DNA of 64,000 nucleotides from IMG/VR virus record IMGVR_UViG_3300046787_000352, positions 2,050 to 66,049 of that record; one strand, written 5' to 3'. Source of the DNA: a virus (lineage: Duplodnaviria > Caudoviricetes). Position numbers and translations under genes: made by a program. Below are positions 17,562 to 61,610 of this stretch, one piece after another. Every line of letters starts with the position of its first letter. The first letter of the stretch is position 1. The notes beneath the pieces are model-generated. The model saw nothing but the letters and a program-made list of their open reading frames with translations, made no database searches and was not told the origin of the DNA.

Positions 17562-18575
17562 TCATGGATAGGTAGTGATGTTGCTACGAGGCAACACATC
17601 GGCGAACTGAGGTAGCTCGACGGCTTCGGACTGACCGCACAGTGTGGTATGGCGCTTGATGGTTTCCCACAAACGTGCCTCCAATTCTTTCTCAGTAATA
17701 CGTTGCTCTAACTCACTGGGTGTGGTCTGCACTGCACCCGTAGCCACATAGCCCCGACCGCTAACCCAGTTGTGCAGATCGCGGTGTTGTTTGAGTTTGC
17801 CTTCGTTGTGCGCACGATGCGTAGCCATTGACGCGTATACCTTCGGTGCAGTGATACGTAAGAACGAATCAAGCACTGTCTGATTGAAGTCACCATTGAC
17901 CAAGCTCTGCATAGCGTAGCGCTCGGCTGTGTCTGGTGTCGCCTCGTTGTGGAACGCATACATGTAGCTTGGGGAGATGGTTTCCTCACGCTCATAGTCA
18001 GGCAGCTTCATCGCCGCCATGAACAGGATAGCCTGCAACGATTGCTTCACATCCTTGCGGTGTTGTTTGTCTTCGGCGCTCGACTTGCGTGTGTAGTGGC
18101 GTGTGTGACTTGATGCCTTCACATCCAACACGTAGTCATCGAACCACATGTCAACACAGAACTGCTCACCCTTGTCTGTGATGCTGTTGCGTACGTGTAC
18201 TGGCACGATCGCTGTGTACTCCATACCCTCGAACACTGCTTGCGTCTCGAAGCGGCGACCATACCGAAGCACTGACCAACGATACTGATTCGACAAGTTG
18301 GTGTTGCTACCGTTTAGTAGTACGCGGCGGCGTGAGCCCTCTGGTTTGTAGTAGCGTGCCATGGGTGTGCGATACAACATGAGGTCATACCACTCTTGCC
18401 CGTCAGCCTGTGTGTGGTGCTCGATGCGGTAGTGATGCAAGCGTGCGTTGCGTAGTGGCCGCTGGTTGTCTTGCCATGCCCTAGCACGTGGTGGCTTCTT
18501 GGTCTTGGCATAGTACGTCTGTGCAGCTTCGTAGCTGTCGATTAGTGGAAGTGATTGAACTGAATTGCTATACAT
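17562..18575 (-). CDS. hypothetical protein
   Basis: 337-aa ORF, RBS AGGAGA. Confidence 0.7.
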   Translation of the reverse strand: MYSNSVQSLPLIDSYEAAQTYYAKTKKPPRARAWQDNQRPLRNARLHHYRIEHHTQADGQEWYDLMLYRTPMARYYKPEGSRRRVLLNGSNTNLSNQYRWSVLRYGRRFETQAVFEGMEYTAIVPVHVRNSITDKGEQFCVDMWFDDYVLDVKASSHTRHYTRKSSAEDKQHRKDVKQSLQAILFMAAMKLPDYEREETISPSYMYAFHNEATPDTAERYAMQSLVNGDFNQTVLDSFLRITAPKVYASMATHRAHNEGKLKQHRDLHNWVSGRGYVATGAVQTTPSELEQRITEKELEARLWETIKRHTTLCGQSEAVELPQFADVLPRSNITTYP

Positions 18576-18591
18576 GGTTTTCTCCTAGGGT

Positions 18592-18954
18592 TTAAAAAGT
18601 TGTGTGCAGTTGGTGCGTTGCATGAATCATGTCGTACAACTCGTCTGCGTCATTGCCGCCTGCTCTGTATTCTTCGGCTCCGTCTTCACCTATTGCTAGG
18701 AAACGGAAGCTGGCCTCGAATACTTCCTCGGCTTCGGACATGAGTTTGTAGTGCGAAGCTACATCGGGGTAGCTCTCATACCACTTCACATCGTCGATCT
18801 TGAACACGATGTACTTGTCTTCGTGGTCTCGTGTCTCGTTGATTGCCTGTGTCATCCACGCATCGTTCTTGTGCAGCACTACATCTCTGAATGTTGCACG
18901 CTCGTTTGCGTCTTTGAATTGAATGGCGTATGCCACGTCACTGCGGTAGCCCAT
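18592..18954 (-). CDS. conserved phage early protein (MGYRSDV...KWY...IGED)
   Basis: Recognisable conserved motifs; RBS AGGAGA. Confidence 0.7.
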   Translation of the reverse strand: MGYRSDVAYAIQFKDANERATFRDVVLHKNDAWMTQAINETRDHEDKYIVFKIDDVKWYESYPDVASHYKLMSEAEEVFEASFRFLAIGEDGAEEYRAGGNDADELYDMIHATHQLHTTF

Positions 18955-19213
18955 CGGTTTTCTCCTTGGTTAGTTTGTTGATAAGTCTGCGCATACCGAA
19001 CTGCTGATACACGATGTTCGATTTGGTTGCGGGTTTCTTCGGGTCTGCGAGTAGCAACCACATACCACTGCTAGGCCATGCTTCGTAGCGCAACCCGTTG
19101 TGGTCTATGCGAATGTGCTGACCGTTGTTGAACACCTCGTGGTCAATGCCAGCGATGGTGAGTAGTGTTGGGGTGCATTGCACCCACCAGTCTTTGGTTT
19201 CTTTTGCGTCCAT
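18938..19213 (-). CDS. hypothetical protein
   Basis: 91-aa ORF starting just downstream of the palindrome at 19221. Confidence 0.55.
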   Translation of the reverse strand: MDAKETKDWWVQCTPTLLTIAGIDHEVFNNGQHIRIDHNGLRYEAWPSSGMWLLLADPKKPATKSNIVYQQFGMRRLINKLTKEKTDGLPQ

Positions 19214-19260
19214 GTTTTGCGTGGGACACCGTGTCCCACAGAAAGATGTTGATAGTGAAG

Positions 19261-19920
19261 TCAGAGGGTGCGCCCATCCTCGTCAAACTCCCACTCGTTG
19301 TGCTCACACGCGTCAGCGATCTGCTCAGGCGAACACAACCACTCGTACTCCTCCTCTAGTTGCTTGTAACAGCGACGTGCATACTCACCCGCCTCGGTCT
19401 GCATCCACTCATGCAGTGAGCTGAGCAACCCATCTATGTCGATCTCACGCCCGATGTTCTCGACGTTCACACCTTTGAACATGCCGTGTGTTAGTACGTC
19501 AGGCTCGTCTACTGCGCGGTACGTGTAGTCCTCGGGTTCCTCTACCGTAGTGACATGGCCACGGTATTGGCGATTGCTCACGCTCACCCTATGCTGTACC
19601 CAGTCGTCGTCGATCAGGTCACGCAGTATTAGGTAGCGTGCATAGTCGGTGTGCTCAGGTGTGAGGTGTGCGTCAAGAAAGTCAGCGATACGTATTGACC
19701 CATTCCATGAGGCGTAGTCACCCTGTGAGTAGAAGCCTGAGAAATTTATCTCGTCAACGTCGAACCCTTTCTCTGGCCCCTGTGACTTTAGGTCGTCGAT
19801 CGTGAACTCCCACCAGTCGTAGCCCATGCAGTCGTCGCAGTACCACTGGTGCACTCGCTCCTTGGCCTTCTCACTCAGCTCGTTGTACTTGTAAACAAGT
19901 TTCTCTATTACTCGTGGCAT
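19261..19920 (-). CDS. acidic conserved early protein (FSGFYSQGD family)
   Basis: FSGFYSQGDYASW and YKQLEEEYEWL...NEWEFDEDG; RBS GGAGG. Confidence 0.7.
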   Translation of the reverse strand: MPRVIEKLVYKYNELSEKAKERVHQWYCDDCMGYDWWEFTIDDLKSQGPEKGFDVDEINFSGFYSQGDYASWNGSIRIADFLDAHLTPEHTDYARYLILRDLIDDDWVQHRVSVSNRQYRGHVTTVEEPEDYTYRAVDEPDVLTHGMFKGVNVENIGREIDIDGLLSSLHEWMQTEAGEYARRCYKQLEEEYEWLCSPEQIADACEHNEWEFDEDGRTL

Positions 19921-19984
19921 ATCAATCCTCCAAAAATAAAAAGTCAATCAATCGGCAAACCAAAACAAATGTGATGACGGTCAT

Positions 19985-20236
19985 TCATATCTCCTTGTTG
20001 TGCCAAGGTGGTGCCATCATCATGTACCCATGGTCAGGGTATCGCTCACACAAAATCTTGCGGAGGTCGTTGTACTTCTGCATCACCTCGGTGTACTTGA
20101 GGTGAAGCTCCCACACCTGTTCAGGTGTCGCATCGGGGTGGCGCATTAGCTTGAGCACACTAATGCCAATCCCCTTGTGGTGTGCAACGAATTGCACCCA
20201 CATCGTTCGCAGCTCTTTGCTTGGTAGCTTACTCAT
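19985..20236 (-). CDS. hypothetical protein
   Basis: 83-aa ORF. Confidence 0.55.
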   Translation of the reverse strand: MSKLPSKELRTMWVQFVAHHKGIGISVLKLMRHPDATPEQVWELHLKYTEVMQKYNDLRKILCERYPDHGYMMMAPPWHNKEI

Positions 20237-20384
20237 AGTGGCGTAGCGTTATCTTGTGCGCCCACTCACGGCCATGGTCATAGGCCCGCATCAAGCCCCA
20301 GTCTGCGTACCACGTGGTGTAGTGCGAACGGAACTCCCACACCCCATTGATGAAGGCGCGTAGTTTGTAAAGTTTGTATGTCAT
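20229..20384 (-). CDS. small hypothetical protein (51 aa, MTYKLYKLRAF...; absent from the ORF track)
   Basis: ATGA overlap with 20381..20764 and RBS AGGAGAG; manual translation is open to TAA at 20229. Confidence 0.45.
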   Translation of the reverse strand: MTYKLYKLRAFINGVWEFRSHYTTWYADWGLMRAYDHGREWAHKITLRHYE

Positions 20385-20764
20385 TGCTCTCTCTCCTTAA
20401 ATTGTTTTGCTAGGTTATCTAGCTCGTTGATTACGAAGTCGAGGGACTTCCATGTTGCATCGGCGAACGGGTCGTTATCCAATTCGTCGTAGTACACCTT
20501 GCTGTTAGGGCGCACGTCCATGTAGTGCGAACAGTCGAAGCCGAAGCACCACACACCGTCACTCTCTGGGTCTGCATACGTCAGCCCACCATGCACATCT
20601 ACCACGGCATCGTCATAATGTGCGCCGAAGTCAGGGTGTGTGCTTGGTAGGTAGATGTACCCGCACCACGAATCCATCACGGTGCGCCGTCTTGCAAGGC
20701 ACACGAACCCGTGCGACTCAAACAAATGTTCGAGGGGTTCGCTTAGCCAAGGTTCGTTATTCAT
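20381..20764 (-). CDS. conserved phage protein (WCGY...VHGGLTY...GFDCSH)
   Basis: Strongly conserved motif set seen in many phage early proteins. Confidence 0.75.
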   Translation of the reverse strand: MNNEPWLSEPLEHLFESHGFVCLARRRTVMDSWCGYIYLPSTHPDFGAHYDDAVVDVHGGLTYADPESDGVWCFGFDCSHYMDVRPNSKVYYDELDNDPFADATWKSLDFVINELDNLAKQFKEREQ

Positions 20765-21038
20765 CTACTTTCCTTTCTCTCGACACAAGGTCGAGTATGT
20801 CCATGCCTGATCGCATGTCAGGTATATGTTGGTCGTTGATACGGTCGCCACGCAACACAGTTAAGAAGTAATAGCGCCTGTCTCCACTGCTTGACCAGCG
20901 CTGCTCAACGTACCCGAGAGATTCGTTCTGCCTAGTTAAATCAAGCAAGTGCAGACGCAATGTCTTCACCTCGAACAAACCCTCTGGGTTCTTGGCGCTA
21001 CTTAATATGGCGGGGGACAGCATCCATTCGTACTCCAT
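20757..21038 (-). CDS. hypothetical protein
   Basis: Coupled ORF. Confidence 0.5.
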   Translation of the reverse strand: MEYEWMLSPAILSSAKNPEGLFEVKTLRLHLLDLTRQNESLGYVEQRWSSSGDRRYYFLTVLRGDRINDQHIPDMRSGMDILDLVSRERKVDE

Positions 21039-21463
21039 CACCGCACCCAATATGTGTAGGCACCCCACTCCACGGCGGTGTAGTCAGCCTTGAGGTTGTC
21101 GGCTGTCGCCTCCCAGTCAATCACGACATAGGTTGGCATGTTGCGTGGTATAGCGCCCAAGTCATCGGTCAGTTGCTCGGCATACTCCGTCCAGTGCTCG
21201 TCCAGAATCAACTGCACCCCATGGTGCCAGTCGGAGCAGTATTGCTCGGCCTCGTTACAGAATTCTTCGAGCGCCTTGTACTCCTCGCCATGCTCGTCGT
21301 CCCATGCGTCGAGGTTTTCTTGCGCCGCCTCCTTGTCGTCCTCGGTATCGGCTTCGTCCACAGCATCGACTAGCGCCGCCCTGTCTGTGGCCATTTCAGT
21401 TAGTAGCTCGGCCAGCTCGCGGCTGTCGATGGTGTCGTCACCGTTGTAGTTTGTGTAACTCAT
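21038..21463 (-). CDS. highly acidic protein with ArdA-like C-terminus (putative antirestriction/DNA mimic)
   Basis: D/E-rich; EYAEQLTDDLG...YVVIDWEATADNL..DY resembles the ArdA C-terminal YxDYExxxRDL pattern; RBS GAGGAG. Confidence 0.55.
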   Translation of the reverse strand: MSYTNYNGDDTIDSRELAELLTEMATDRAALVDAVDEADTEDDKEAAQENLDAWDDEHGEEYKALEEFCNEAEQYCSDWHHGVQLILDEHWTEYAEQLTDDLGAIPRNMPTYVVIDWEATADNLKADYTAVEWGAYTYWVR

Positions 21464-21657
21464 GCTGTCTCTCCTCGTGATTGAATGTTTGCTTTGATTA
21501 GTACGCCCTGTGCGTACAGGTTGCACGCCTTCTCGAACTCAGGCGTATTGGGGTTCATGAGCGGCATCGCGGCGGCTAGTAGCTCCATGATGCCCTCGGC
21601 TTGGCGCAGTGCCTTGGCACGTTGCTCTGGTGTCTTGATCTGGTTTCTCATTGTCAT
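21460..21657 (-). CDS. hypothetical protein
   Basis: RBS AGGAGA; 65 aa. Confidence 0.55.
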   Translation of the reverse strand: MTMRNQIKTPEQRAKALRQAEGIMELLAAAMPLMNPNTPEFEKACNLYAQGVLIKANIQSRGETA

Positions 21658-21680
21658 GGTTTCTCCTAAACAAGTTGCTA

Positions 21681-21962
21681 CTAGACCGTAGTAGCCACGG
21701 TGGTGGGACAGGGTGTCCCACGGGGTTCTTTCTCGGCATGGCGCACCTCTACTTTGGCATAGCGCACGGCGTCCTCGGGTGTGTTGTGTATTCGTGCCAT
21801 CTTGAGTACCTCGCCATCGGGCCAGTAAATCACTGTGCCCCATGCTCTTTCTTCCTCTGCGGCTTCGGGGCCTGAGTACCACGGGTAGCGATACACCAGT
21901 TGGCACACCACACCACGGTACTCAAACAGGTCGCCCGTGTAGCTGTCTTCGTCGTGTGTCAT
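21681..21962 (-). CDS. hypothetical protein (LFExxGxVC...PEDA family)
   Basis: ATGA-coupled; 3' end reads through the palindrome at 21703 (GTPCPT). Confidence 0.55.
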   Translation of the reverse strand: MTHDEDSYTGDLFEYRGVVCQLVYRYPWYSGPEAAEEERAWGTVIYWPDGEVLKMARIHNTPEDAVRYAKVEVRHAEKEPRGTPCPTTVATTV

Positions 21963-22186
21963 CTGTACGCCCCATTCTTTTCTTGGTTGACCATGACCCG
22001 CGCCATCTTTATTGCGTCTTCTGGCTTGGTGTACCAGTTCGACTGGTTGTGGGTGCCGTCCTTGCGATACATCAAGCCCTGATACCACGGCGGTTGGTTA
22101 GCACTGGTCTGCGCGGTGCGCAAGGCACACACATAGCCGCTATGCTCGAACAGTTCCATCTCGTCTGAATTGAACCTAATACTCAT
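21959..22186 (-). CDS. hypothetical protein (LFExxGxVC...PEDA family)
   Basis: RBS AGGAGAAG immediately after the palindrome at 22202. Confidence 0.6.
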   Translation of the reverse strand: MSIRFNSDEMELFEHSGYVCALRTAQTSANQPPWYQGLMYRKDGTHNQSNWYTKPEDAIKMARVMVNQEKNGAYR

Positions 22187-22224
22187 TGCTTCTCCTTGTT
22201 GGTGGGACAGGTTGTCCCACGGGT

Positions 22225-22878
22225 TTAATCCCACAGCTTCGGCACTCTCAGCTTCCACTGCATCTCTGTGGAGATTGCTCTCCACCGTTCGCCCACGCCA
22301 AACCGTTCGTTGGCCTCGACGTAATCTTGCCACCGTGCGCTAGGCGCTCGGCGTTGTTCTTTCAGGCGCTCCAGTTTTGAGTGGGCGCGGATGGATTCGA
22401 GCATCTCTAGGTAGTATTCGAGATGGTCTTTGGTGTTTGGGCACTGGTTGTACGCCGCGCGTTGGTTGTGCTTACGTAGCTGGTCTTTCACGGCGGCGAT
22501 CTCTTTGCCTAGCGGCTCAAGCATTACGTCCCACGACTCACGATATATCTGGCCCCACCGCTTCGTGATTGCGTCACGCCCTTTGTTTGCTCGGCTTGCT
22601 TCGCGCTTCTCGATTTCTCTATCAACAATGTATTGAGAGAGTTCGCCCGATTTGACCTTGGCCAGTAGCTCGTCGCGGCGTAGCTTGTCGATGGGCTTTT
22701 TCTTGGGCTGACATGATTTGCATCGGCTTGATTCGTACTCAAGGGTGACAGCTCCCGCGAACCCCCAAGCCTTCGACTGCGCCTTGGTGGCTTTGGCTTT
22801 GAATTCAGCGAGGGGTTTGATCGCTTTGCATACGGTGCACATGGCCGCCGCAGGCAGTGATTCCACGTCAATAGTCAT
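22225..22878 (-). CDS. basic zinc-finger protein (CxxC...CxxC)
   Basis: MCTVCKAIKPLAEF...SRCKSCQ; RBS AAGGAG. Confidence 0.7.
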   Translation of the reverse strand: MTIDVESLPAAAMCTVCKAIKPLAEFKAKATKAQSKAWGFAGAVTLEYESSRCKSCQPKKKPIDKLRRDELLAKVKSGELSQYIVDREIEKREASRANKGRDAITKRWGQIYRESWDVMLEPLGKEIAAVKDQLRKHNQRAAYNQCPNTKDHLEYYLEMLESIRAHSKLERLKEQRRAPSARWQDYVEANERFGVGERWRAISTEMQWKLRVPKLWD

Positions 22879-22899
22879 ACTTACTCCTTACGTTTTGCC

Positions 22900-23253
22900 G
22901 TGGGATACCCACTAGGCAAGTTGCAGATACCCACTAAAGCCATGGTGGTGGACAGTATGGTGGGTGATATTTTGAGCCCCGAGTATACATCGTTTTAGGG
23001 GGGGTGTACCCACAAGACCTATCTCGTAGCAAGAACGCTATCGCCAAAAAGGGTAAAAACCTATTTGTATTAACGCCTAACCACACCCACGTGACCCACT
23101 TTATATATATATCTTAATAAATCTATTTATATATATATAGGTGTAGTGGGTGCTGGGTGTGGGTTCGCTAATATCCATGCGGGTTTGAGGGTGGCCCACC
23201 CCTTGTCCACTACTATGGCTTTAGTGGGTATTTCGCCTGTTTCAGGTGGGTAT
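22900..23253. repeat. long imperfect inverted repeat with (TA)n core; candidate origin or structured RNA
   Basis: 22927-22954 versus 23204-23231 match 26/28 as an inverted repeat; inner CCACACCCA..ACCCACT / AGTGGGT..TGGGTGTGG flank TATATA runs at about 23101-23139. Confidence 0.8.
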
Positions 23254-23256
23254 GCC

Positions 23257-23412
23257 TTACCCATGACTTCTCCAAAACAAGTTGGTGGGACATGGTGTCC
23301 CACGGCGTCGATGGTCTGCGATAGCGAGGAGGCGGTGCTCCTCACGCAAGGCGCGCAAGCGCTCACGATACCAAGCCACATAGACGGGCAGTGTGAGGGG
23401 TAGTTGTTTCAT
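23257..23412 (-). CDS. small hypothetical protein
   Basis: ATGA-coupled to 23409..23603; reads through the palindrome at 23285. Confidence 0.4.
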   Translation of the reverse strand: MKQLPLTLPVYVAWYRERLRALREEHRLLAIADHRRRGTPCPTNLFWRSHG

Positions 23413-23603
23413 AGTGCCCCCATCGTGCCGCTGTGGCGGTAGTGTGTGAAGCCTTGCACCAGCGCCCATGCCTTGGCCATCTTGTACAGCGTGTCGTATT
23501 CGTGGCCCTCGAATGTTTTGATTAGCTTGTTGCGGTAGAACAGGTCGAAGGCGTAGCCTGACGAACCCCATGGGTGATACGTGCTGAGCGTGACGGTTTT
23601 CAT
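23409..23603 (-). CDS. small hypothetical early protein
   Basis: RBS GGAGAAG before ATG 23603. Confidence 0.55.
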   Translation of the reverse strand: MKTVTLSTYHPWGSSGYAFDLFYRNKLIKTFEGHEYDTLYKMAKAWALVQGFTHYRHSGTMGAL

Positions 23604-23747
23604 GCTGGCTTCTCCAAAATAGGTTTGTGGGAATAAATGCGCAACGAAGCGCGGTGGACACGGAATGGAACAGCAGTCAGGCGAGGCGCTCCCGCCCTTC
23701 TGCGTAGGTTTTGTAAAACACGTTGGTGGGACACGGTGTCCCACGCA

Positions 23748-24173
23748 TTACGCATTGAGTGCTTTGAAGACAGCGGCGGCACGTTTCTTGTCGCCACCAC
23801 AAGCGGCCAAGAAGGCTTTGAAGGCTTCGCGCTCGGCGGCAGTCACGCGCATCTTGGTTGGCTCGGCGCGTGCTCGCTCGGTGGACTTGAAATGCACCAT
23901 GACGTTGCGCTCCCAAGACTTACGGGCCGAGTCGTTGCGGGTGTCGCGGGTTGATTCGTCGCCGTCATAGAACACGGCAGAGCCTGCGGCGTTCCATGTG
24001 TAGTTGCACTGGTACTTCTTGGCGTGTACCTTGGCCAGTGCCTCTAGTAGCGTGGGACATGGTGTCCCACCGAGCGCGGCGGCGGCTTGGCTTAGTGCGT
24101 CACCGTATGACATGCCAGCCTGCAAGAAGGCTTCGTACTTGGCGGCGATAGATTGAATGTTGATTGAAGTCAT
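23748..24173 (-). CDS. first early gene, hypothetical protein (contains the palindrome at 24052)
   Basis: RBS AAAGGA; 141 aa; basic helical C-terminus. Confidence 0.7.
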   Translation of the reverse strand: MTSINIQSIAAKYEAFLQAGMSYGDALSQAAAALGGTPCPTLLEALAKVHAKKYQCNYTWNAAGSAVFYDGDESTRDTRNDSARKSWERNVMVHFKSTERARAEPTKMRVTAAEREAFKAFLAACGGDKKRAAAVFKALNA

Positions 24174-24456
24174 GATATTTCCTTTGGTTATGTATCAAGC
24201 AGAGAACCATTCCCTACTCGATGCCTCTATTGTATGACAACACGTTTTCAAAAGGGGTTGACAACACCCAAATCGGCCAGTTCCGAACCCCACCTACCCC
24301 CCACATCCCCTTTTTGACGTACCCATGGCCGTCGCGTATGAACACTGTTCCACATCGACTTTCAGCAAATTTGTCAAACACTGTCCACTTATAGCCAAAA
24401 GTATTACATCAAAAATTTTATAAAAAATTGGCCAGGTTTTTGTCAAATGCCAGGCG

Positions 24457-24487
24457 AAAAAAAAGCCCCGGGTTTGATGCCGGGGCT
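24457..24487 (-). terminator. rho-independent terminator-like hairpin on the minus strand
   Basis: Minus strand AGCCCCGG-catcaaac-CCGGGGCT followed by a T-run. Confidence 0.6.
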
Positions 24488-24591
24488 GAATGGGTTTTAC
24501 CCCAGAGGAGAAGCAATGCAGGCAACTGCTTGCCGCACTACCGGAAATGAGTGTACACTCCGCGCATCGAGGTGACAACAGGAGCCTTCGC

Positions 24592-25212
24592 TTGTTTGAA
24601 GATTTGGTGCAATTTAATCCGGAACCCACACCGTCTGGAAACTTCAAGCCCATCGACGAGATGGGGCCAGCTACCGTGCTTGACGCACAGGTGGCTACAG
24701 CTGATTGGCTGGAAGAGATCGGCGCGCCTCCCGATGAGGACGCCCACGCAGAGGCAACGCAAAAGTTGGCCCGGGCTGCGTTCACCGCCATGATTACTGA
24801 CTCGGACGAGGGCACACAGCGCAAAGCGCTCACCACCCTGAAGACACCCGAGGCGGTAAGACACATCACCGGCATGCTGGCAGCCTACGACTGGGAATTT
24901 GTCGAGCAGGCCAAAGAGCTCCGCGGCTACGCCGTGGCGCAAATCTTCGAAGAGACCAAACACCCCGACGCCAAGATTCGACTCAAAGCACTTGAGATGC
25001 TGGGCAAGGTCACGGAAGTGGCGCTGTTCACGGAACGCGTTGAGGTCAAGAAGGCTGAGATGAGCGACCACGAGCTCGAGGCCAAGATCAAAGAGAAGCT
25101 GAACAAGTTCATGAAGGTCGTGGACGTGGTCGATGTAAGGGACGTGTCAGAAGACACCCCGGCCGAAGACCCCACCCCCGCACTCCCCAAACCAGAAACG
25201 GACGACGAGTGA
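24592..25212 (+). CDS. terS: putative terminase small subunit
   Basis: Directly upstream of and overlapping terL; HPDAKIRLKALEMLGK...FTERVEV motif; TTG start after AGGAG (the ORF track starts at 24490). Confidence 0.6.
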   Translation: MFEDLVQFNPEPTPSGNFKPIDEMGPATVLDAQVATADWLEEIGAPPDEDAHAEATQKLARAAFTAMITDSDEGTQRKALTTLKTPEAVRHITGMLAAYDWEFVEQAKELRGYAVAQIFEETKHPDAKIRLKALEMLGKVTEVALFTERVEVKKAEMSDHELEAKIKEKLNKFMKVVDVVDVRDVSEDTPAEDPTPALPKPETDDE

Positions 25213-55074: not shown

Positions 55075-55166
55075 CCCACTTATGTGAGAGAATTCTCCAC
55101 ACAGCGCCTCAGTCTTACCCGCTGGGGCGTTTGCACATTTGATGGGTTACTTTCTGCTGATTGACT

Positions 55167-58100
55167 ATGGCCAAATTCCTGCCCCTGCCTAACGGTTCTA
55201 AACTCGAAGTGCCACCTGGCATGTCTGACGATGAGGCCATGCGCCTTGCGCGCAAGCAGTTCCCGGACCTTTTCCCCAAACAAGGCGGCGTAATGGGGGC
55301 CGTGGGCAAAGGCTTCGAGTCAACCTTGTCTGGTATGCAGACGGGTATTGGTGCCCTGTTTAATCCAGAAGAAGCAGCTCGCGCAGGTGCAGAGCGTGGC
55401 CAAGACATCAACAGCCGCTACGCTGAAGAAGTCAGCTTCGACAAAGTCCGTGAAGCCTACGATAAGAACGGCATCCTCTCCGCCGCGCGCGAAGCGCTTG
55501 GTCAAGTTCCCAAAGCAATCGCTGAGCAAGCACCCAATATGGCTGCCACACTTGGCAGTGCGCGCCTCGGCGCCATGGCGGGTTCACTTGCAGGCCCAGC
55601 AGGTACAGTCGTTGGTGGTGTGGCCGGTGCGCTGGCCCCGTCCCTCTTGCAGCAGTTCGGTGGCAACATTGAGCGTCAACAGGCCGAAGGCGTCCCAATC
55701 AATCGTGGTGCTGCCGCTGCGGCCGCAGTCCCCCAAGCCGCGCTGGATGCCGCTGGTACCTTTATTCCTTTGGGTGGCCAACTGGTAAGCAAGCTGACAG
55801 GCATCCCAATCAAGGGTCTGGCCAACAAGGGTGCAGCCAAACTGGCTGACGAGTCTCTCAAGAAGACGTTGCTCAAAGGTACGGCCGTTGGCGCCTTGGC
55901 TGAAATCCCCACCGAAATCACACAGCAGATGCTTGAGCGCGCGCAAGCCGGCCTGTCCTTGACCAGCCCAGACGCTCTGAAAGAATACGGCGAGACCGCA
56001 TACCAAGTTGGTCTGTTGGCGCCCATCGGTGCCGTCGGTCGCTTCTCGGAGAAGGGCGCAGCCCGCCAACAAATCGCTGACGAGCAAGACGCCAAAGACA
56101 TTGCCGCTGCGGCCGCCGAGGAAGAACGCAAGAACCAGCCCGAGTATTTGCAGAAGCTGTCGGCCGACTTCACCGCTGCGCGTTCACAGATGCAGGACCT
56201 CAACGACCGCATCGACGCAGCCGCCCCACCCAAGAAGCCCGGCAAGAACGCCAAGCCCGAAACAATTCAGGCGTACAAGGCCGCGCGCGCAGCGTATACC
56301 CCTGCTCAGGAAGCCGAGTACAACGAAGCCAAGATGGCCAAGGACGAACTGCTGGGCACCTTCGCCCCACTGCGTGACGAGTTCAATGCGCGCCGCGACC
56401 AGATCAACGAGATGGAGCAGCAGCGCATGAGCGCCATGGAGCAGGAGACTGCCCAGAATCAACCGACAGCCGCCGGAGCAATCCCCAACGCTGACCCACA
56501 ACGAAACGTCGTTGACCTCATGCAGCGTCACGACGCCATGGGTACTCAGCTGGATGACCTGCAAACACAAGCCGCAGAAGCAGCGAAGGCTGGCGACACG
56601 GCCACCATCCTGTCTTTGACTCCGCAGATCAACGCGCTCAAACAAAAGCAAGCCAGCGCGGCCGAGATCATCACACAGATGGGCGGTTCTACCGCCCCAA
56701 CAAAAGAACTGGCCGTCATCGCCGAGAAACAGTTGGCCGATGCACAAGCCAAGATGCTCGCGACACAAAAGGAGCTCATCAAAGCCGCTGAGCTAGGCGA
56801 TACCGCTGCGACCGAGAAGTTGGCTAAGCAGTTTGATGCAGAGAAGCTGAACATTCAAGCGCTGCAAGACAAGACTGCCAAGCAAATGCAGTTGCGCACA
56901 GTTGCTGAAACACCCGCCGGTGAAACGCCAGGCATGTTCGGCGCCCAAGAGAAGCCAGATGAAGTGAAAGCCACTGAGGTCTTGAAAGGCGAAGCCGAGC
57001 GCGGTCTCTATGGCCCAGAAAGCAAAGCCGAGTCGGCCAAGCAAGCGTTCACCGAAGCAGAAGTTGGCCCACGTGGCCAGCTCGAAACTGCACCTGTGAT
57101 GCAGAAGGTCAAGAAAGACAAGGATACGCTCGCCCTGTTCGGTAAAGAGAACCTCGTCAAGACCACGCTGGCTAACCGCGAGTTTGAAAATGGCCCGTAC
57201 AAAGAAGTCACACTGGACGAGCAAGGTCAGCGCAACGTCGAGCGTGAGCGCGTCTTGCGTTTGTTGGAAGACCGTTTTGGTTTGGGCGGCGAAGACAAGA
57301 TCACCGAAGGTCCGTTCAAAGGCGAGACCACGCGCAGCGTGCAGTCCACCCGCATGTATGAGCACCCCATGTTCAAAAAGACCATGGAAGAGATTCAGAA
57401 GCACAAGGACAAGGTCGAAAAGAAGCAGCGCAACGCCAAGAAGTCTTTGTTGGACCAGCTGTATGAGCACGCCAATACATACAACTACATCCACGAGCTG
57501 CAAGGTGGCAACAAGAAGACCGGCGCAGCCGAGTCTCCAATCGCTGCTGTCGCTGACCAACTGGTGAACTTGGCTCCTCCTGCGCAATTCGTTGCGGGTT
57601 TGGAGAAGAAGACACCATACACGTTGGGTCTTGCCAAAAAATCGGCTCTGACAAAATACGAAGCGGTGTTGGCCAAGATCGAGATGGAGCGCAACGCCAT
57701 CGAGAAGCTGTACAAGAACTTGCACAGCGCAGTCGTGAAGATCACCCCACTTGAGAAAGTGGAGTCTGTGCGACAGAAGAAAAAGGACCTGTTGGCTGCA
57801 CAACCAAAGCCCGTCGTGTCGAAGGCCGCCAAGGAAGTCAAGCGCATCAACGAAGGTGACGTGGCCAAAGAAGCGTCTGAGACGCAGACCATGCGTGACT
57901 TGGCCTACATGCTCGGCATGGACACAGACGTGTACGCTCGCGCCAAGAAGCAGCTCGCACAGCGTGGCAAGAAGATTGCCGACCAGCACACCAAGGACTC
58001 AAACGAGTATCGTGAGTTCATCGACTTGGCTCGCCCAGACCTGCGCAACATTGCTGAGCGTGAAGGCGCCAAGACAGACGAGTACAAAGAAGCGCTGGCC

Positions 58101-61100
58101 GAACAGACTGAGTCGCTGAAGAAGTCATATCAGTCCGCCGGCAAGCAAGAGCTGAAGTCGAAGCGTGACAAGTCACCGGTGATGCGCAAGCAGTCCGCTG
58201 CACCTGAGCGTTTTGTGACTGGCTCCCCTGAGAGCAAGGCTCGCGCTGCCGAAAAACAAGCTCGCTACATGCAATCGCTGAACGACGCCTACGAAGCCAT
58301 CCAGTCTGAGAACGACGGCACCTATGGTGAAGGCAACTGGCGCACAGCCCCACGCACTCAAGGCATCAAGCTGGACGAAGCACAGAAAGTCATCGACGGT
58401 TTGAAGTTGCCCAAGGGCATCAAGTTCGTCTACGCCGAGTCGCTGGACGATGCCCCCAAAGAGTTCTACATGGAAGCTGCGGCCCAAGGCTTGAAGCACA
58501 TGGACTTGCTCGACAAGAAGGGTGTGGTCTTGAAGGACGGCACAGTGATTGTCATCGGTGCGCACCACGCCAACGTCAAAGACCTCGAAGCCACCATCGC
58601 TCACGAGTTGATCGGCCACTACAGTGTTCAAGGTTTGCTGGGCAAGAAGGGTATGGCCAACTTGATGGAGACCATCGACACCCAACAGGGTGGCGTGCTC
58701 AAGCTCGCCGATGACCTGGGCGTTGGTATCCAAGTGCGCAACGCGATTGCCGAAGCCAAAGAAGGCGGCGCAAGCGATCTCGACTCCCGCTTTGTCGGCT
58801 TGCAAGAGATGCTGGCCTATGTTGAAGAACAGCGTGTGACCGAGGATTTCTTGGCTAAGGCCAAGCGCTTCATGAAAGAGATCGTCGGCGCTGTGCGCAA
58901 GGCGTTCCGTGACATGGGCCTCCTCAACACAGCCGAGCTCAGCACCAGCGACATGTACAAGCTGTTGCGCGACGCACGCAAGCAATTCAACGAAGGCAGC
59001 ACCGGCGCATACCGTGACCCCAACGGCGGCTTGCTGTTCCGCAGCGGCGCCAAGAGCACGGCCAAACACAGCATCACAGCCAAGCCATCCACGCTCAAGG
59101 ACAAGATCAAGGCAAACTTCTTTGGTCTGGGCGCACGCCAGCAGTTCGTGGACAGCTACGCTTCGATCGACTCGGCCATCCGCGCCGGCATGGACAAGAA
59201 TATGCTGACCTCCATGGAGGGCGAGCAAGCCATGTACTACCTGCGCTTCACTGAGCAGCGTAGCCAATACGTCGGCCAGTTCGTGACGAACGGCCCCGTG
59301 TCGCTTGAGTCACAGAAGACACCACGCGGCACCGAGTACGTGTTCAAGTCCAAGAAAGGCCCGACCTTGATGAAGGTCGCTGAGCTCGCCGGCAAGTCTG
59401 GTTTGGGCAACGAAGCCACCATTGAGGACTACCTGACCTCCTACCTCGTCGGCCAACGTGCCAATGCTGTGGGCTGGAGCAAGCTGGGCAAGAGCGAGAA
59501 GGAAGCTCGCGCCGCTTACCAAGAAGTTATGGGTAAGCTGGCCGCCAACCCCAAGGCCAAGACAGCGTTCGAGGCAGCGGCCAAAGAGTACAAGGCATAC
59601 AACGACGGCCTCATTGACTTCTTGGCGCAGTCCGGCGCGATCAGCCGTGGCAAAGCCGCTGAGTTGAAGTCCAAGCCATACGTGCCGTTCTATCGTGAGA
59701 AAGATGGCAACGTCGAGCTCGTAGTCGATGGTGAGTCTATCCTGCGCATCGGCAACATCAAGAACCAACCACAGCTCAAAGAGTTGCTGGGCGGCGATGA
59801 GAAGGTCATGCCGCTCTACGAGAGCGCTATGCAGAACACCGCCATGATTACGGACATGGCCTTGCGCAACATCAAGACCAAGAACACAGCGTACGCGTTG
59901 AAGAAGGTCGGCATCGTGAGCCGCGTCGGCGACGGCAAAGGCCCTGCTGACCCCAGCATCGTGCGCTTCTTCGAGCATGGCGAACCCAAATATGCGGTCG
60001 TTGACAAAGACGCCTTCGGCATCCCCGCTGAGCTCGTGGTCAAGTCCATGGAGGGCATCGCCACCACCATCCCCGCCGTCGTGCGTTTGATGGGCTACCC
60101 AGCTGACTGGCTGCGCCAGTTCGTGACCCGCAACCCAGCGTACGCTATCCGTCAGACCATTCGTGACCCGTTGTCTGCATGGCTCACCACCGGTACGGAC
60201 TCAATGCCTGTGCTCAGCTCTCTGAAAGAACTCAGCAAGATGGTGGGCGGCCGCAGTGCAGCTGAGACAAAGCTCATGGAGTCTGGTGCGATTAGCAGCA
60301 ACGTGTTTACAGGAGACTCCAAAGACCTGAAGACCTTCCTGCGCGACATCTCTGCTGGCAAGTCTGGTTGGGAGAAAGCCATGGCCAAGCTCGACGCCTT
60401 CGCTTTGCAGGGCGATTCGGCTACCCGCGCGGTGATCTACAACGAAGCGATCAAGCAAGGCATGACCGAGATGCAGGCCCTGACCCGCACGCTGGAGTCC
60501 ATGAACTTCTCACGTCGCGGCTTGTCACCCAGCATGCAGGTGCTCTCCACGCTCATCCCGTTCTTCAACGCACAGATTCAAGGTCTGGACGTGCTGTATC
60601 GCGCCTACAAAGGCCAGATGCCGTTCGAGAAGCAACTCCAAGTGCGTGAGAAGATGTTGAAGCGCGGCACCATTCTGGCAGTTGCCGCCGTGGCCTACGC
60701 CGCGCTCATGCAGGACGACGAAGCGTACAAGAACGCCAAGCCCGAAGAACGTTATGGCAACTTCTTCCTGAGCATCCCGGGCATCGACGAACCGATGCGC
60801 GTGCCACTGCCGTTCGAATTGGGCTACATCTTCAAGGCGCTGCCCGAGGCGATCTACAACATGGCAGTCGGCGACGAGAAGGCCAGCAACGCCATGGCCG
60901 GTATCGGTAAGCTGTTCGCTCAGTCCAACCCGTTTGGTCTGCCCCAAGCCATCAAACCAGCGACCGAAGTCATCCTCGGCAAGTCGTTCTACTCAGGCGA
61001 CATCGAGTCGGCACGTGACAAGCAAGTGCTCCCCACCGAGCGCTACCGCGACAACACGTCTGAGCTGAGCAAGATTATCGGCAGCGTCACAGGCGAAGTG

Positions 61101-61610
61101 GGCCTGAGCCCCGTCAAGCTGGACTACCTGATTCGCGGTTACTTCGGTAGCCTGGGCGTTGCATTGGCCCAGATCGCCAACCCAGTTCTGGCCGCGACAC
61201 CTGAGAAGGAAGTGGCCAAACCAAGCACCAAGGTCAGCCAGATGCCAGTCATCGGTTCGCTTTTCCAACCCATCGAAGGTCGCGGCCCAGTGGACGAAGC
61301 CTACGCCCGTATGGAGGAAATCAAGCAAGCCAAGGGCACCTTCACACGCTTGGTCGAGCAAGGCAAACAAGCCGAAGCCCGTGCGTTCGCTCAGCAGTAT
61401 TCGACAGAACTGGCCATGGCCAGCACATCCGGTGCCGTGTACAAGCGACTCGGCGAGCTGTCGAAGCAAGAGCGTGCGATCAAGGCCAGCGCCAACATGG
61501 ACACACCTCAGAAGGACGAAGCGCTCAAGCGTATCGCCGAGGCCAAGATCAAGTTGGCTCGGATGTTGACTCAGGCTTCCGACCGCGCCGCTGAAACAAA
61601 ACCCCAATGA
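55167..61610 (+). CDS. giant polyvalent (ejection-type) protein with a zincin-like motif and LPD38-like C-terminus
   Basis: N-terminal Gly/Ala hydrophobic region; AHELIGHY; PFFNAQIQG.D and P.PFELG.IFK..PE motifs. Confidence 0.75.
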   Translation: MAKFLPLPNGSKLEVPPGMSDDEAMRLARKQFPDLFPKQGGVMGAVGKGFESTLSGMQTGIGALFNPEEAARAGAERGQDINSRYAEEVSFDKVREAYDKNGILSAAREALGQVPKAIAEQAPNMAATLGSARLGAMAGSLAGPAGTVVGGVAGALAPSLLQQFGGNIERQQAEGVPINRGAAAAAAVPQAALDAAGTFIPLGGQLVSKLTGIPIKGLANKGAAKLADESLKKTLLKGTAVGALAEIPTEITQQMLERAQAGLSLTSPDALKEYGETAYQVGLLAPIGAVGRFSEKGAARQQIADEQDAKDIAAAAAEEERKNQPEYLQKLSADFTAARSQMQDLNDRIDAAAPPKKPGKNAKPETIQAYKAARAAYTPAQEAEYNEAKMAKDELLGTFAPLRDEFNARRDQINEMEQQRMSAMEQETAQNQPTAAGAIPNADPQRNVVDLMQRHDAMGTQLDDLQTQAAEAAKAGDTATILSLTPQINALKQKQASAAEIITQMGGSTAPTKELAVIAEKQLADAQAKMLATQKELIKAAELGDTAATEKLAKQFDAEKLNIQALQDKTAKQMQLRTVAETPAGETPGMFGAQEKPDEVKATEVLKGEAERGLYGPESKAESAKQAFTEAEVGPRGQLETAPVMQKVKKDKDTLALFGKENLVKTTLANREFENGPYKEVTLDEQGQRNVERERVLRLLEDRFGLGGEDKITEGPFKGETTRSVQSTRMYEHPMFKKTMEEIQKHKDKVEKKQRNAKKSLLDQLYEHANTYNYIHELQGGNKKTGAAESPIAAVADQLVNLAPPAQFVAGLEKKTPYTLGLAKKSALTKYEAVLAKIEMERNAIEKLYKNLHSAVVKITPLEKVESVRQKKKDLLAAQPKPVVSKAAKEVKRINEGDVAKEASETQTMRDLAYMLGMDTDVYARAKKQLAQRGKKIADQHTKDSNEYREFIDLARPDLRNIAEREGAKTDEYKEALAEQTESLKKSYQSAGKQELKSKRDKSPVMRKQSAAPERFVTGSPESKARAAEKQARYMQSLNDAYEAIQSENDGTYGEGNWRTAPRTQGIKLDEAQKVIDGLKLPKGIKFVYAESLDDAPKEFYMEAAAQGLKHMDLLDKKGVVLKDGTVIVIGAHHANVKDLEATIAHELIGHYSVQGLLGKKGMANLMETIDTQQGGVLKLADDLGVGIQVRNAIAEAKEGGASDLDSRFVGLQEMLAYVEEQRVTEDFLAKAKRFMKEIVGAVRKAFRDMGLLNTAELSTSDMYKLLRDARKQFNEGSTGAYRDPNGGLLFRSGAKSTAKHSITAKPSTLKDKIKANFFGLGARQQFVDSYASIDSAIRAGMDKNMLTSMEGEQAMYYLRFTEQRSQYVGQFVTNGPVSLESQKTPRGTEYVFKSKKGPTLMKVAELAGKSGLGNEATIEDYLTSYLVGQRANAVGWSKLGKSEKEARAAYQEVMGKLAANPKAKTAFEAAAKEYKAYNDGLIDFLAQSGAISRGKAAELKSKPYVPFYREKDGNVELVVDGESILRIGNIKNQPQLKELLGGDEKVMPLYESAMQNTAMITDMALRNIKTKNTAYALKKVGIVSRVGDGKGPADPSIVRFFEHGEPKYAVVDKDAFGIPAELVVKSMEGIATTIPAVVRLMGYPADWLRQFVTRNPAYAIRQTIRDPLSAWLTTGTDSMPVLSSLKELSKMVGGRSAAETKLMESGAISSNVFTGDSKDLKTFLRDISAGKSGWEKAMAKLDAFALQGDSATRAVIYNEAIKQGMTEMQALTRTLESMNFSRRGLSPSMQVLSTLIPFFNAQIQGLDVLYRAYKGQMPFEKQLQVREKMLKRGTILAVAAVAYAALMQDDEAYKNAKPEERYGNFFLSIPGIDEPMRVPLPFELGYIFKALPEAIYNMAVGDEKASNAMAGIGKLFAQSNPFGLPQAIKPATEVILGKSFYSGDIESARDKQVLPTERYRDNTSELSKIIGSVTGEVGLSPVKLDYLIRGYFGSLGVALAQIANPVLAATPEKEVAKPSTKVSQMPVIGSLFQPIEGRGPVDEAYARMEEIKQAKGTFTRLVEQGKQAEARAFAQQYSTELAMASTSGAVYKRLGELSKQERAIKASANMDTPQKDEALKRIAEAKIKLARMLTQASDRAAETKPQ

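Follow-up and report, generated by a model that had tools for sequence, protein, structure and literature searches.

A conserved palindromic element in the early operon of uncultured freshwater phages and its possible role in the control of early transcription

A 19-nt palindrome, GTGGGACA-N3-TGTCCCAC, occurs in six exact copies in the early operon of the phage represented by IMG/VR record IMGVR_UViG_3300046787_000352 (Duplodnaviria; Caudoviricetes). The repeats are real and well beyond chance expectation, and they represent a conserved, lineage-specific signal that uncultured freshwater phages of one large clade have in common. The source record is 66,049 bp long and is rated complete and linear by its source; the stretch analyzed here, referred to as the window, comprises its bases 2050-66049 (64,000 nt), and the samples containing the sequence are freshwater metagenomes. 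The copies are polar, are confined to the transcribed early region, keep their arms complementary and tolerate more than one loop length, and the element behaves like a cis signal that co-evolves with a sequence-specific reader. We propose, with a probability of roughly 45%, that the copies are transcribed hairpins read by a phage factor that controls the elongation or termination of early transcription.

Distribution, arms and polarity of the element

An exact pattern search of the window returned the six copies listed in Table 1, and 100 shuffles of the window returned no match (0 expected). Relaxing the search to three or fewer mismatches added no copy in the window, and none was added in the whole record at one mismatch or fewer. 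Lone half-sites GTGGGACA number two outside the six copies against 2.6 expected, i.e., isolated arms are not enriched. The six copies, their coordinates and the lack of any other full copy had been reported in a first-pass annotation made from the letters alone, as had a G at the loop center in five of six copies, a polar flank G(T/G)TG-site-G in four, and the peptide GTPCPT in three open reading frames (ORFs) including the first early gene. All of this is borne out, with the loop center read on the + strand, the flank present in 4/6 copies, and GTPCPT encoded by each of the three in-ORF copies (24052, 23285 and 21703). The same annotation placed a degenerate copy near 23627, where the downstream GGAG context is indeed present but the palindrome is reduced to a right-arm remnant. 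A predicted RNA hairpin folds for all six copies. On the sense strand, AAC(T/G)TGTTT(T/A) recurs at 21677-21695, 23274-23284 and 23713-23725, directly behind two copies and behind the additional hairpin that follows copy 21703, each time just ahead of a GGAG ribosome-binding site or an untranslated stretch.

Table 1. Copies of the palindrome and associated features in the window.
Feature	Coordinates	Strand	Loop (+ strand)	Description
Palindrome copy	24052..24070	-	TGG	Within gene 1, codons 35-41 GGT GGG ACA CCA TGT CCC ACG; best-conserved copy of the family
Palindrome copy	23726..23744	-	CGG	3 nt past the gene-1 stop; terminator-like member; tail in the window CAACGTGTTTT
Palindrome copy	23285..23303	-	TGG	In the 3' tail of a 51-residue ORF; GGAG and the next ATG 11 nt on
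Palindrome copy	22202..22220	-	GGT	Intercistronic; 4 nt past the stop of the 217-residue Zn-ribbon gene, 5 nt ahead of AGGAG
Palindrome copy	21703..21721	-	GGG	In the 3' tail of a 93-residue ORF; followed by a second, non-conserved hairpin (21677-21695) with AACTTGTTTA tail
Palindrome copy	19221..19239	-	CCG	Last copy; 21 nt past a stop, 7 nt ahead of the ATG of a 91-residue ORF
Right-arm remnant	23620..23640	-		TTCCCAC; same GGAG context as copy 23285; unmatched at three or fewer mismatches
Promoter, sigma-70-like	24417..24446	-		TTGACA-18-TATAAA, upstream of gene 1; putative, recognized by eye; no palindrome here
Gene 1	23748..24173	-		First early gene, 141 residues; orphan family, predicted homodimer, candidate reader
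Zn-ribbon gene	22225..22878	-		Zn-ribbon (CxxC...CxxC) and long-helix protein, 217 residues; second universal early gene, alternative candidate reader

The genes of the window from 24173 down to 1 lie on the minus strand and form a leftward early operon in which small ORFs belonging to no family are followed by an ATPase, an HNH protein, a family A DNA polymerase, a PD-(D/E)XK nuclease and an SNF2 helicase; a rightward block with terminase, portal and structural genes begins at 24490. From this layout, all six copies lie within the first 5 kb of the leftward early operon, and all are on its transcribed side. A promoter scan of 18500-25000 found three promoter-like sites against 4.8 expected, none of which adjoins a copy; the scan omitted the putative sigma-70-like promoter of Table 1 because the last base of its -10 element is A.

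The exact pattern is present in 81 stretches of a viral contig collection, 31 of them with two to six clustered copies. Relatives were also retrieved blind to the motif, through the gene-1 peptide patterns KSWxRNVM and KYxCNYTW, both outside the palindrome, which gave 50 loci that were set with gene 1 forward. Counted as 7-nt complementary arms with 4-6 nt between them (counts not deduplicated), the element is present in 47 of the 51 loci made up of these relatives and the window. The 290,804 nt that precede gene 1 contain none, gene 1 itself holds 44 copies, and the 218,260 nt that follow it hold 156, extending as far as +6731. Variants related to the element occur in the four loci that lack a counted copy: L102/L103 have GTACGACA...TGTCGCAC, and L135/L136 have a CGGGACA core. 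The first-pass annotation had suggested a scan of relatives in which the sites might prove absent or unconserved; they are conserved in these 47 loci. Two copies of the same palindrome, 218 bp apart, also occur in a different, G+C-rich phage group (L025:8190-8430; also L019, L034, L040, L053, L056 and L071), where they are intergenic between a helicase-like gene and a 618-residue gene and are surrounded by direct and inverted GTGGGAC half-sites in an iteron-like arrangement.

The arms are the constant part of the element. Among relatives whose gene-1 proteins are only ~50% identical the arms are invariant, and loops and flanks drift. Searching 532 kb with the unbiased pairing pattern GTGNNACA-N3-TGTNNCAC, which fixes only GTG..ACA...TGT..CAC, gave 119 matches in unique contexts, of which 106 are complementary at both free positions (GG/CC 76, AG/CT 17, AT/AT 8, GA/TC 4, GC/GC 1). 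Most genomes have a single arm type, and the types differ between lineages. Eight of the 13 non-complementary matches are AG/CC, with an A.C mismatch on the sense strand, and one clade accounts for five of these with its in-gene copy.

The copy inside gene 1 is informative in that its codons, GGT GGG ACA CCN TGT CCC ACG, are (nearly) invariant in 23 distinct genes in which other conserved gene-1 residues use two to six codons; these genes came mostly from the motif search, and the motif-blind set gives the same picture. Where the arms change, both arms and the peptide shift together, as in L110-L113 (GTGATACA...TGTATCAC, GDTPCIT) and L117 (GTGGAACA...TGTTCCAC, GGTPCST), and the other copies in these contigs share the in-gene variant. 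A GAG clade keeps the palindrome at the same place in gene 1 with a 4-nt loop, a shifted right-arm frame and an unrelated peptide (RETSVSH), and remote members of the gene-1 family have no conserved peptide at the palindrome position. Judged from these sequences, selection is on the nucleotides of the in-gene palindrome.

Of the unique contexts, 131 have 5 nt between the 7-nt arms, 14 have 6 nt and three have 4 nt; seven single contigs mix these lengths, and one loop is CUUCGG. Such variation in loop length favors a hairpin, because a rigid dimer on duplex DNA would tolerate it less easily. In some lineages the loop-closing pair and the loop length have changed: alongside canonical copies in the same contig, L133 (copies at -139, +124 and +1662) has GTGAGACC-N4-GGTCTCAC, and L097 (copies at +4, +476 and +1941) has a 4-nt spacer between the 7-nt arms.

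Polarity is evident when copies are read on the sense strand. In 53 non-homologous contexts downstream of gene 1, the first loop position is C in 41 and the loop center is C in 36 versus G in 13. Among the 32 of these contexts that are strictly intergenic, position 1 is C in 27 and the mirror position 3 is G in only nine, and the center is C in 22 versus G in eight (p=0.016). The flanks are likewise asymmetric relative to transcription, the 5' flank being merely C-rich. Just over half of the contexts (27/53) begin 2-8 nt past the stop codon that ends an ORF of 45 codons or more, and five more have a TGA within the arm. The distance from a copy to the next ribosome-binding site is broad (0-100 nt), and several copies lie 4-12 nt ahead of one. 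Of 13 unique contexts of the post-gene-1 copy, 11 have a T-run behind the copy, as compared with 2/44 for other copies, and several copies are followed by a second, variable hairpin that is not conserved.

Gene 1 and the Zn-ribbon protein as candidate readers

Gene content downstream of gene 1 is highly variable among the relatives, and ORF clustering found only the gene-1 and Zn-ribbon families to be universal in the early region. The former is present in all loci by construction, as the loci were retrieved through gene 1; the Zn-ribbon/helical family is present in 38/38 loci with at least 1700 nt downstream, counting a weakly similar subfamily that lacks the ribbon. The early regions of relatives also contain a NinX-like protein (PF10765, E 2.4e-23) and an M28/M20-like peptidase (L125:11269-11649, L112:8192-9310), both of which are absent from the early region of the window.

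The gene-1 protein was modeled with a predicted local distance difference test (pLDDT) score of 82.8. Its homodimer prediction scores 0.70 against 0.00 for the best control, with contacts agreeing to at least 94% between runs and a partner pLDDT of at least 81. This mark was reached by 20 of 30 proteins solved as pairs of one chain and by one of 23 single-chain structures; these counts apply only roughly here, because we supplied our own alignment. In the predicted dimer much of helix 40-53, otherwise the would-be recognition helix, is buried. The tree-ordered alignment of gene 1 showed by eye no clear residue outside the palindrome that covaries with arm type.

Gene 1 belongs to an orphan family. 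Its protein has no Pfam or PHROG family, and Foldseek comparison of its structure with the PDB and BFVD returned nothing below E 0.1. A tblastn search of 50,697 cultured-phage (GenBank) records found no homolog, a search of 1.84 billion proteins yielded only 50 family representatives at 50% identity, the clusters obtained in an Atlas search were all viral and hypothetical, and no longer protein with gene 1 fused into it was found. The Zn-ribbon protein is also without a family or a structural match. Neither protein matches a helix-turn-helix (HTH) or other DNA-binding family or fold, the best PDB hit being MarR (template modeling score 0.17, E 0.22). Two weak likenesses of gene 1 to the TnpB/Cas12 lineage fall below significance and were set aside as noise, a lead at most: one to Cas12g (residues 79-132 with Cas12g residues 171-223, E 0.16, the sole hit in a PDB profile search) and one to the Pfam family OrfB_IS605 (E 0.0028, in one of 28 remote family members).

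Control of early transcription and competing explanations

In the model that we favor, host RNA polymerase would start upstream of gene 1, and the palindromes would be transcribed within the leftward early operon as cis-acting hairpins with a stem of 7-8 bp, GUG-R-N-AC(A), and a sense loop (A)CCN(U). The copy directly after gene 1 would form the stem of a terminator-like structure, with other copies standing at cistron ends, and a phage-encoded, sequence-specific factor, most likely the gene-1 homodimer and otherwise the Zn-ribbon protein, would read the hairpins and set the reach or stability of early transcription, with antitermination or attenuation in the style of lambda N/nut as the output. 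Polarity and variable loop length together favor a folded, transcribed form over a classical operator. A fuller version of this model, which we consider unlikely though not markedly so, would be a novel system of antitermination or attenuation without kinship to lambda N, in which an orphan dimeric early protein would read a hairpin inside its own coding sequence, the same hairpin would serve as a terminator stem after its gene and recur at most early cistron 3' ends, hairpin and reader would switch specificity together between lineages, and the copies would, as a by-product, provide exchange points for early-gene cassettes.

A number of observations weigh against transcribed hairpins as the active form. 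The RNA form is itself something that we infer, as are the identity of the reader and the termination or elongation output. Contigs with two arm types often mix them unpaired within one site: four of five copies in L101 combine GGA and GGC arms (4 of the 13 exceptions above), all four in L102 combine GTAC and GTGC arms, and AG/CC accounts for eight unique contexts. Arm position 8 shows no compensation (A/A 105, A/G 16, G/A 7, G/G 0), so that a 7-bp stem and a five-base loop, A-C-C-N-Y, describe the element better. On the sense strand A.C exceeds G.U, 27 versus 8. The predominance of genomes with one arm type is explained by co-evolution with a sequence-specific reader equally well for RNA and for DNA, and a symmetric gene-1 homodimer, as predicted, would suit a duplex palindrome. 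The T-run is spaced 3-4 nt from the stem (7 nt in the window), a gap not usually seen in strong intrinsic terminators. Finally, the best-conserved copy lies ~100 nt inside an ORF, and eight of the 53 others lie 26-57 nt ahead of a stop; such in-ORF copies weaken the case for an RNA hairpin because ribosomes would melt it there.

Several of these points would fit better with operators in duplex DNA of the roadblock ("stoperator") type, in which a phage dimer, most likely the gene-1 product, would bind the 19-bp palindromes and damp or shut off early transcription, including that of its own gene. We consider this main rival unlikely, if not markedly so. The 8-3-8 geometry places half-site centers 11 bp apart, the gene-1 protein is predicted to dimerize (0.70 versus 0.00), the heterotypic arms of L101, L102 and AG/CC resemble half-site mixing, and copies inside ORFs pose no problem at the DNA level. 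Stoperator motifs are likewise reported to track lineages together with their repressors, much as here there is usually one arm type per genome, and to keep one orientation relative to transcription (PMC6550527). However, no copy overlaps or precedes a promoter in any of the 51 loci, the arm spacer ranges over 4-6 nt within single genomes, and loop and flank polarity would have no role for a symmetric dimer. Neither gene 1 nor the Zn-ribbon protein has a DNA-binding family or structural match, the predicted dimer buries much of helix 40-53, and the conserved T-run after the post-gene-1 copy is left unexplained. No integrase was found in the genome, so this would not be a lysogenic immunity system. 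Sites of an early regulon tied to the first gene or the zinc-finger protein had been among the suggestions of the first-pass annotation: a regulon-type signal does fit, both families being universal and a gene-1 dimer being predicted, but a classical operator fits less well, given the absence of copies from the promoter region of all 51 loci, the polarity and the variable loop.

The annotation's other two suggestions, cassette boundaries and N4-like hairpin promoters, fared less well. As a primary function, recombination would make the identical 19-bp repeats exchange points that shuffle early-gene cassettes between co-infecting relatives, in a PeSL-like or, loosely, attC-like manner; we regard this as improbable. 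Downstream of gene 1 the gene content does vary, and between the window and its close relative L086 a module of 1.3-1.6 kb, holding an origin-like repeat region and the Zn-ribbon gene, is replaced between two copies: homology ends 16 nt past the copy at +445 and resumes 9 nt ahead of the copy at +2027. Contigs in a further comparison, probably DNA and mostly of relatives, stop matching the window at the palindrome edges 19220, 19239, 21703 and 23723, and in one relative that lacks the 91-residue ORF after copy 19221 the contig joins 18954 to 19220. Over 23 loci, 91-92 of 774-790 internal homology ends fall within 40 nt of a copy versus 51-52 expected. Yet the enrichment is modest, 1.8-fold at copies versus 1.3-fold at copy-free ORF ends, any conserved island will anchor the ends of alignments, and close relatives differ by at least four further indels that lie away from copies. 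A search of the genome gave no tyrosine recombinase, 19 bp is short for homologous exchange, and the polarity, the copy within gene 1, the T-run and the invariance of arms amid drifting loops would go unexplained. PeSL elements are described as composite promoter/terminator motifs at indel boundaries (PMC4122927). We read the breakpoint excess as a side effect of conserved 19-nt islands and not as the primary function, and the cassette-boundary suggestion holds weakly, for the one module swap bounded by two copies, with enrichment only 1.8-fold versus 1.3-fold.

The copies might also be structural punctuation of the mRNA without a specific reader, acting as 3'-end stabilizers or processing barriers and kept identical by gene conversion. 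Copies placed right after stop codons, the stability of the predicted hairpins and the variable second hairpin that follows several copies are in keeping with this, but structure alone needs no sequence identity, and the arms are invariant at ~50% gene-1 identity; the lineage-wide switches of arm type imply a reader. We judge this a little less probable again than recombination. On the last reading, that of phage N4-type promoters, hairpins of the template strand would be extruded and recognized by an injected RNA polymerase. The resemblance to the promoter features familiar from N4 lies in the 3-nt loop, with a central G on the template strand in 5/6 window copies, in the several copies 4-12 nt ahead of a ribosome-binding site, and in the excess of sense A.C (template G.T) over G.U, 27 versus 8. 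This is very improbable. In every locus the sequence ahead of the first early gene is free of copies (0 in 290,804 nt), a putative sigma-70-like promoter can be read there in the window, and the interval from a copy to the next ribosome-binding site varies widely, 0-100 nt. No phage-type RNA polymerase family was found in the genome, in a search in which control genomes also gave no signal, and none was found among the large proteins, where a 2149-residue protein has no sequence match to any solved polymerase.

Neighboring features, significance and comparison with known systems

An origin-like region at 22900-23256, between the third early ORF and the Zn-ribbon gene, consists of ATACCCAC(TA) boxes, in one orientation to the left and inverted to the right, around a (TA)n core, with 28-nt inverted arms at 22927-22954 and 23204-23231 that are 93% complementary. 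The link proposed between the palindrome and this adjacent long hairpin comes down to a common CCCAC, and the hairpin region has a different box, ATACCCAC. A strong terminator-like hairpin of eight pairs (seven G-C) followed by T7 lies at 24464-24487 (minus strand), between the divergent early and late operons; it has sub-threshold Rfam matches to small RNAs of Betaproteobacteria/Burkholderia (30.6 bits versus a gathering score of 50), which may hint at the host group. The 2149-residue ORF (55161-61610) closes the structural block, and its only match is to the LPD38 "large polyvalent protein" domain at residues 1853-2031, its first ~1450 residues being unannotated. Among GenBank phages, a search for near relatives by DNA gave only weak terminase matches, and no Rfam family matches the palindrome hairpins at E up to 5.

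Searches of the literature by arm sequence and by repeated early-region palindromes or stem-loops, which did not cover supplementary files, gave no description of the element among the matches listed, those by arm sequence being unrelated primers. The early regions of uncultured phages consist mostly of unannotated small genes without a known control logic, and a 19-nt element together with two universal orphan genes provides a compact, sequence-recognizable mark of the early operon in a large freshwater phage clade. It is a practical marker for early operons and module boundaries in metagenomic phage contigs, and its natural specificity variants amount to a ready-made experiment on the identity of the reader and on RNA versus DNA as the active form. 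A new hairpin-binding antiterminator or roadblock repressor, if such it proves to be, would add a family to the few phage systems of elongation control and would offer orthogonal parts with several hairpin or operator specificities.

Two published systems come close in arrangement. Stoperators of Cluster A mycobacteriophages are 13-bp asymmetric sites distributed genome-wide in temperate phages and bound by a monomeric HTH immunity repressor (PMC6550527, PMC9283540). As with those sites (PMC6550527), there are here many conserved sites inside transcription units at gene junctions, oriented to transcription and with genome-specific motifs that track lineage, as seen in the polarity and the five lineage-sorted arm types. 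Unlike stoperators, the sites here are 19-bp palindromes with a variable loop that do not extend beyond the initial 6.7 kb of the early operon, and no integrase and no recognizable repressor or HTH family was found. PeSL elements of T4-type phages combine an early promoter with stem-loop/terminator motifs at indel boundaries (PMC4122927). Short conserved stem-loop motifs repeated between small variable early genes, with some module swaps ending there, are common to both, whereas no promoter consensus stands beside the copies described here; their association with breakpoints is weak, with one clean two-sided case and the 1.8-fold versus 1.3-fold enrichment.

Other known classes were compared as well. 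The virion RNA polymerase and the hairpin upstream of the first early gene that mark N4 early promoters were not found, and, as compared with an intrinsic terminator, in which a U-tract directly follows a G+C-rich hairpin, a T-run is present only at the post-gene-1 copy (11/13, versus 2/44 for other copies), 3-4 nt off the stem and 7 nt in the window. Mimicry of host repeats of the REP/RAYT kind was rejected, since bacterial genomes have mostly scattered single, chance-level copies among the at least 120 matches listed and not high-copy host repeats with a cognate transposase, and integron attC sites were rejected in view of the lack of a tyrosine recombinase or cognate integrase in the genome. 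In the temperate phage phiC31, conserved intergenic inverted repeats of the early region, present in many copies, are repressor operators; the element described here is similarly a highly conserved inverted repeat in many intergenic early-region copies, with the difference that phiC31 is temperate.

The closest parallel in logic is with lambda N/nut, in which the boxB RNA hairpin, whose 5-bp stem carries a GNRA-like pentaloop, stands beside boxA in two copies and is bound by N, an arginine-rich-motif protein. As in lambda, a candidate regulator comes first in the early operon with a terminator-like element after its gene, and a small hairpin of fixed sequence, differing between related phages, stands just past stop codons. 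Unlike in lambda, there are 3-6 or more copies and not two, one of them within the gene-1 reading frame; the stem has 7-8 bp and the loop is (A)CCN(U), no boxA-like element is seen, and the gene-1 protein is a 141-residue orphan modeled as a folded dimer and not an arginine-rich peptide protein. The lambda nut sites are untranslated and lie upstream of terminators that the polymerase reads through, as against 32/53 intergenic contexts here, a T-run in 11/13 post-gene-1 contexts, and a best-conserved copy within gene 1. By this comparison, the system would be N/nut-like in its logic rather than in its membership.

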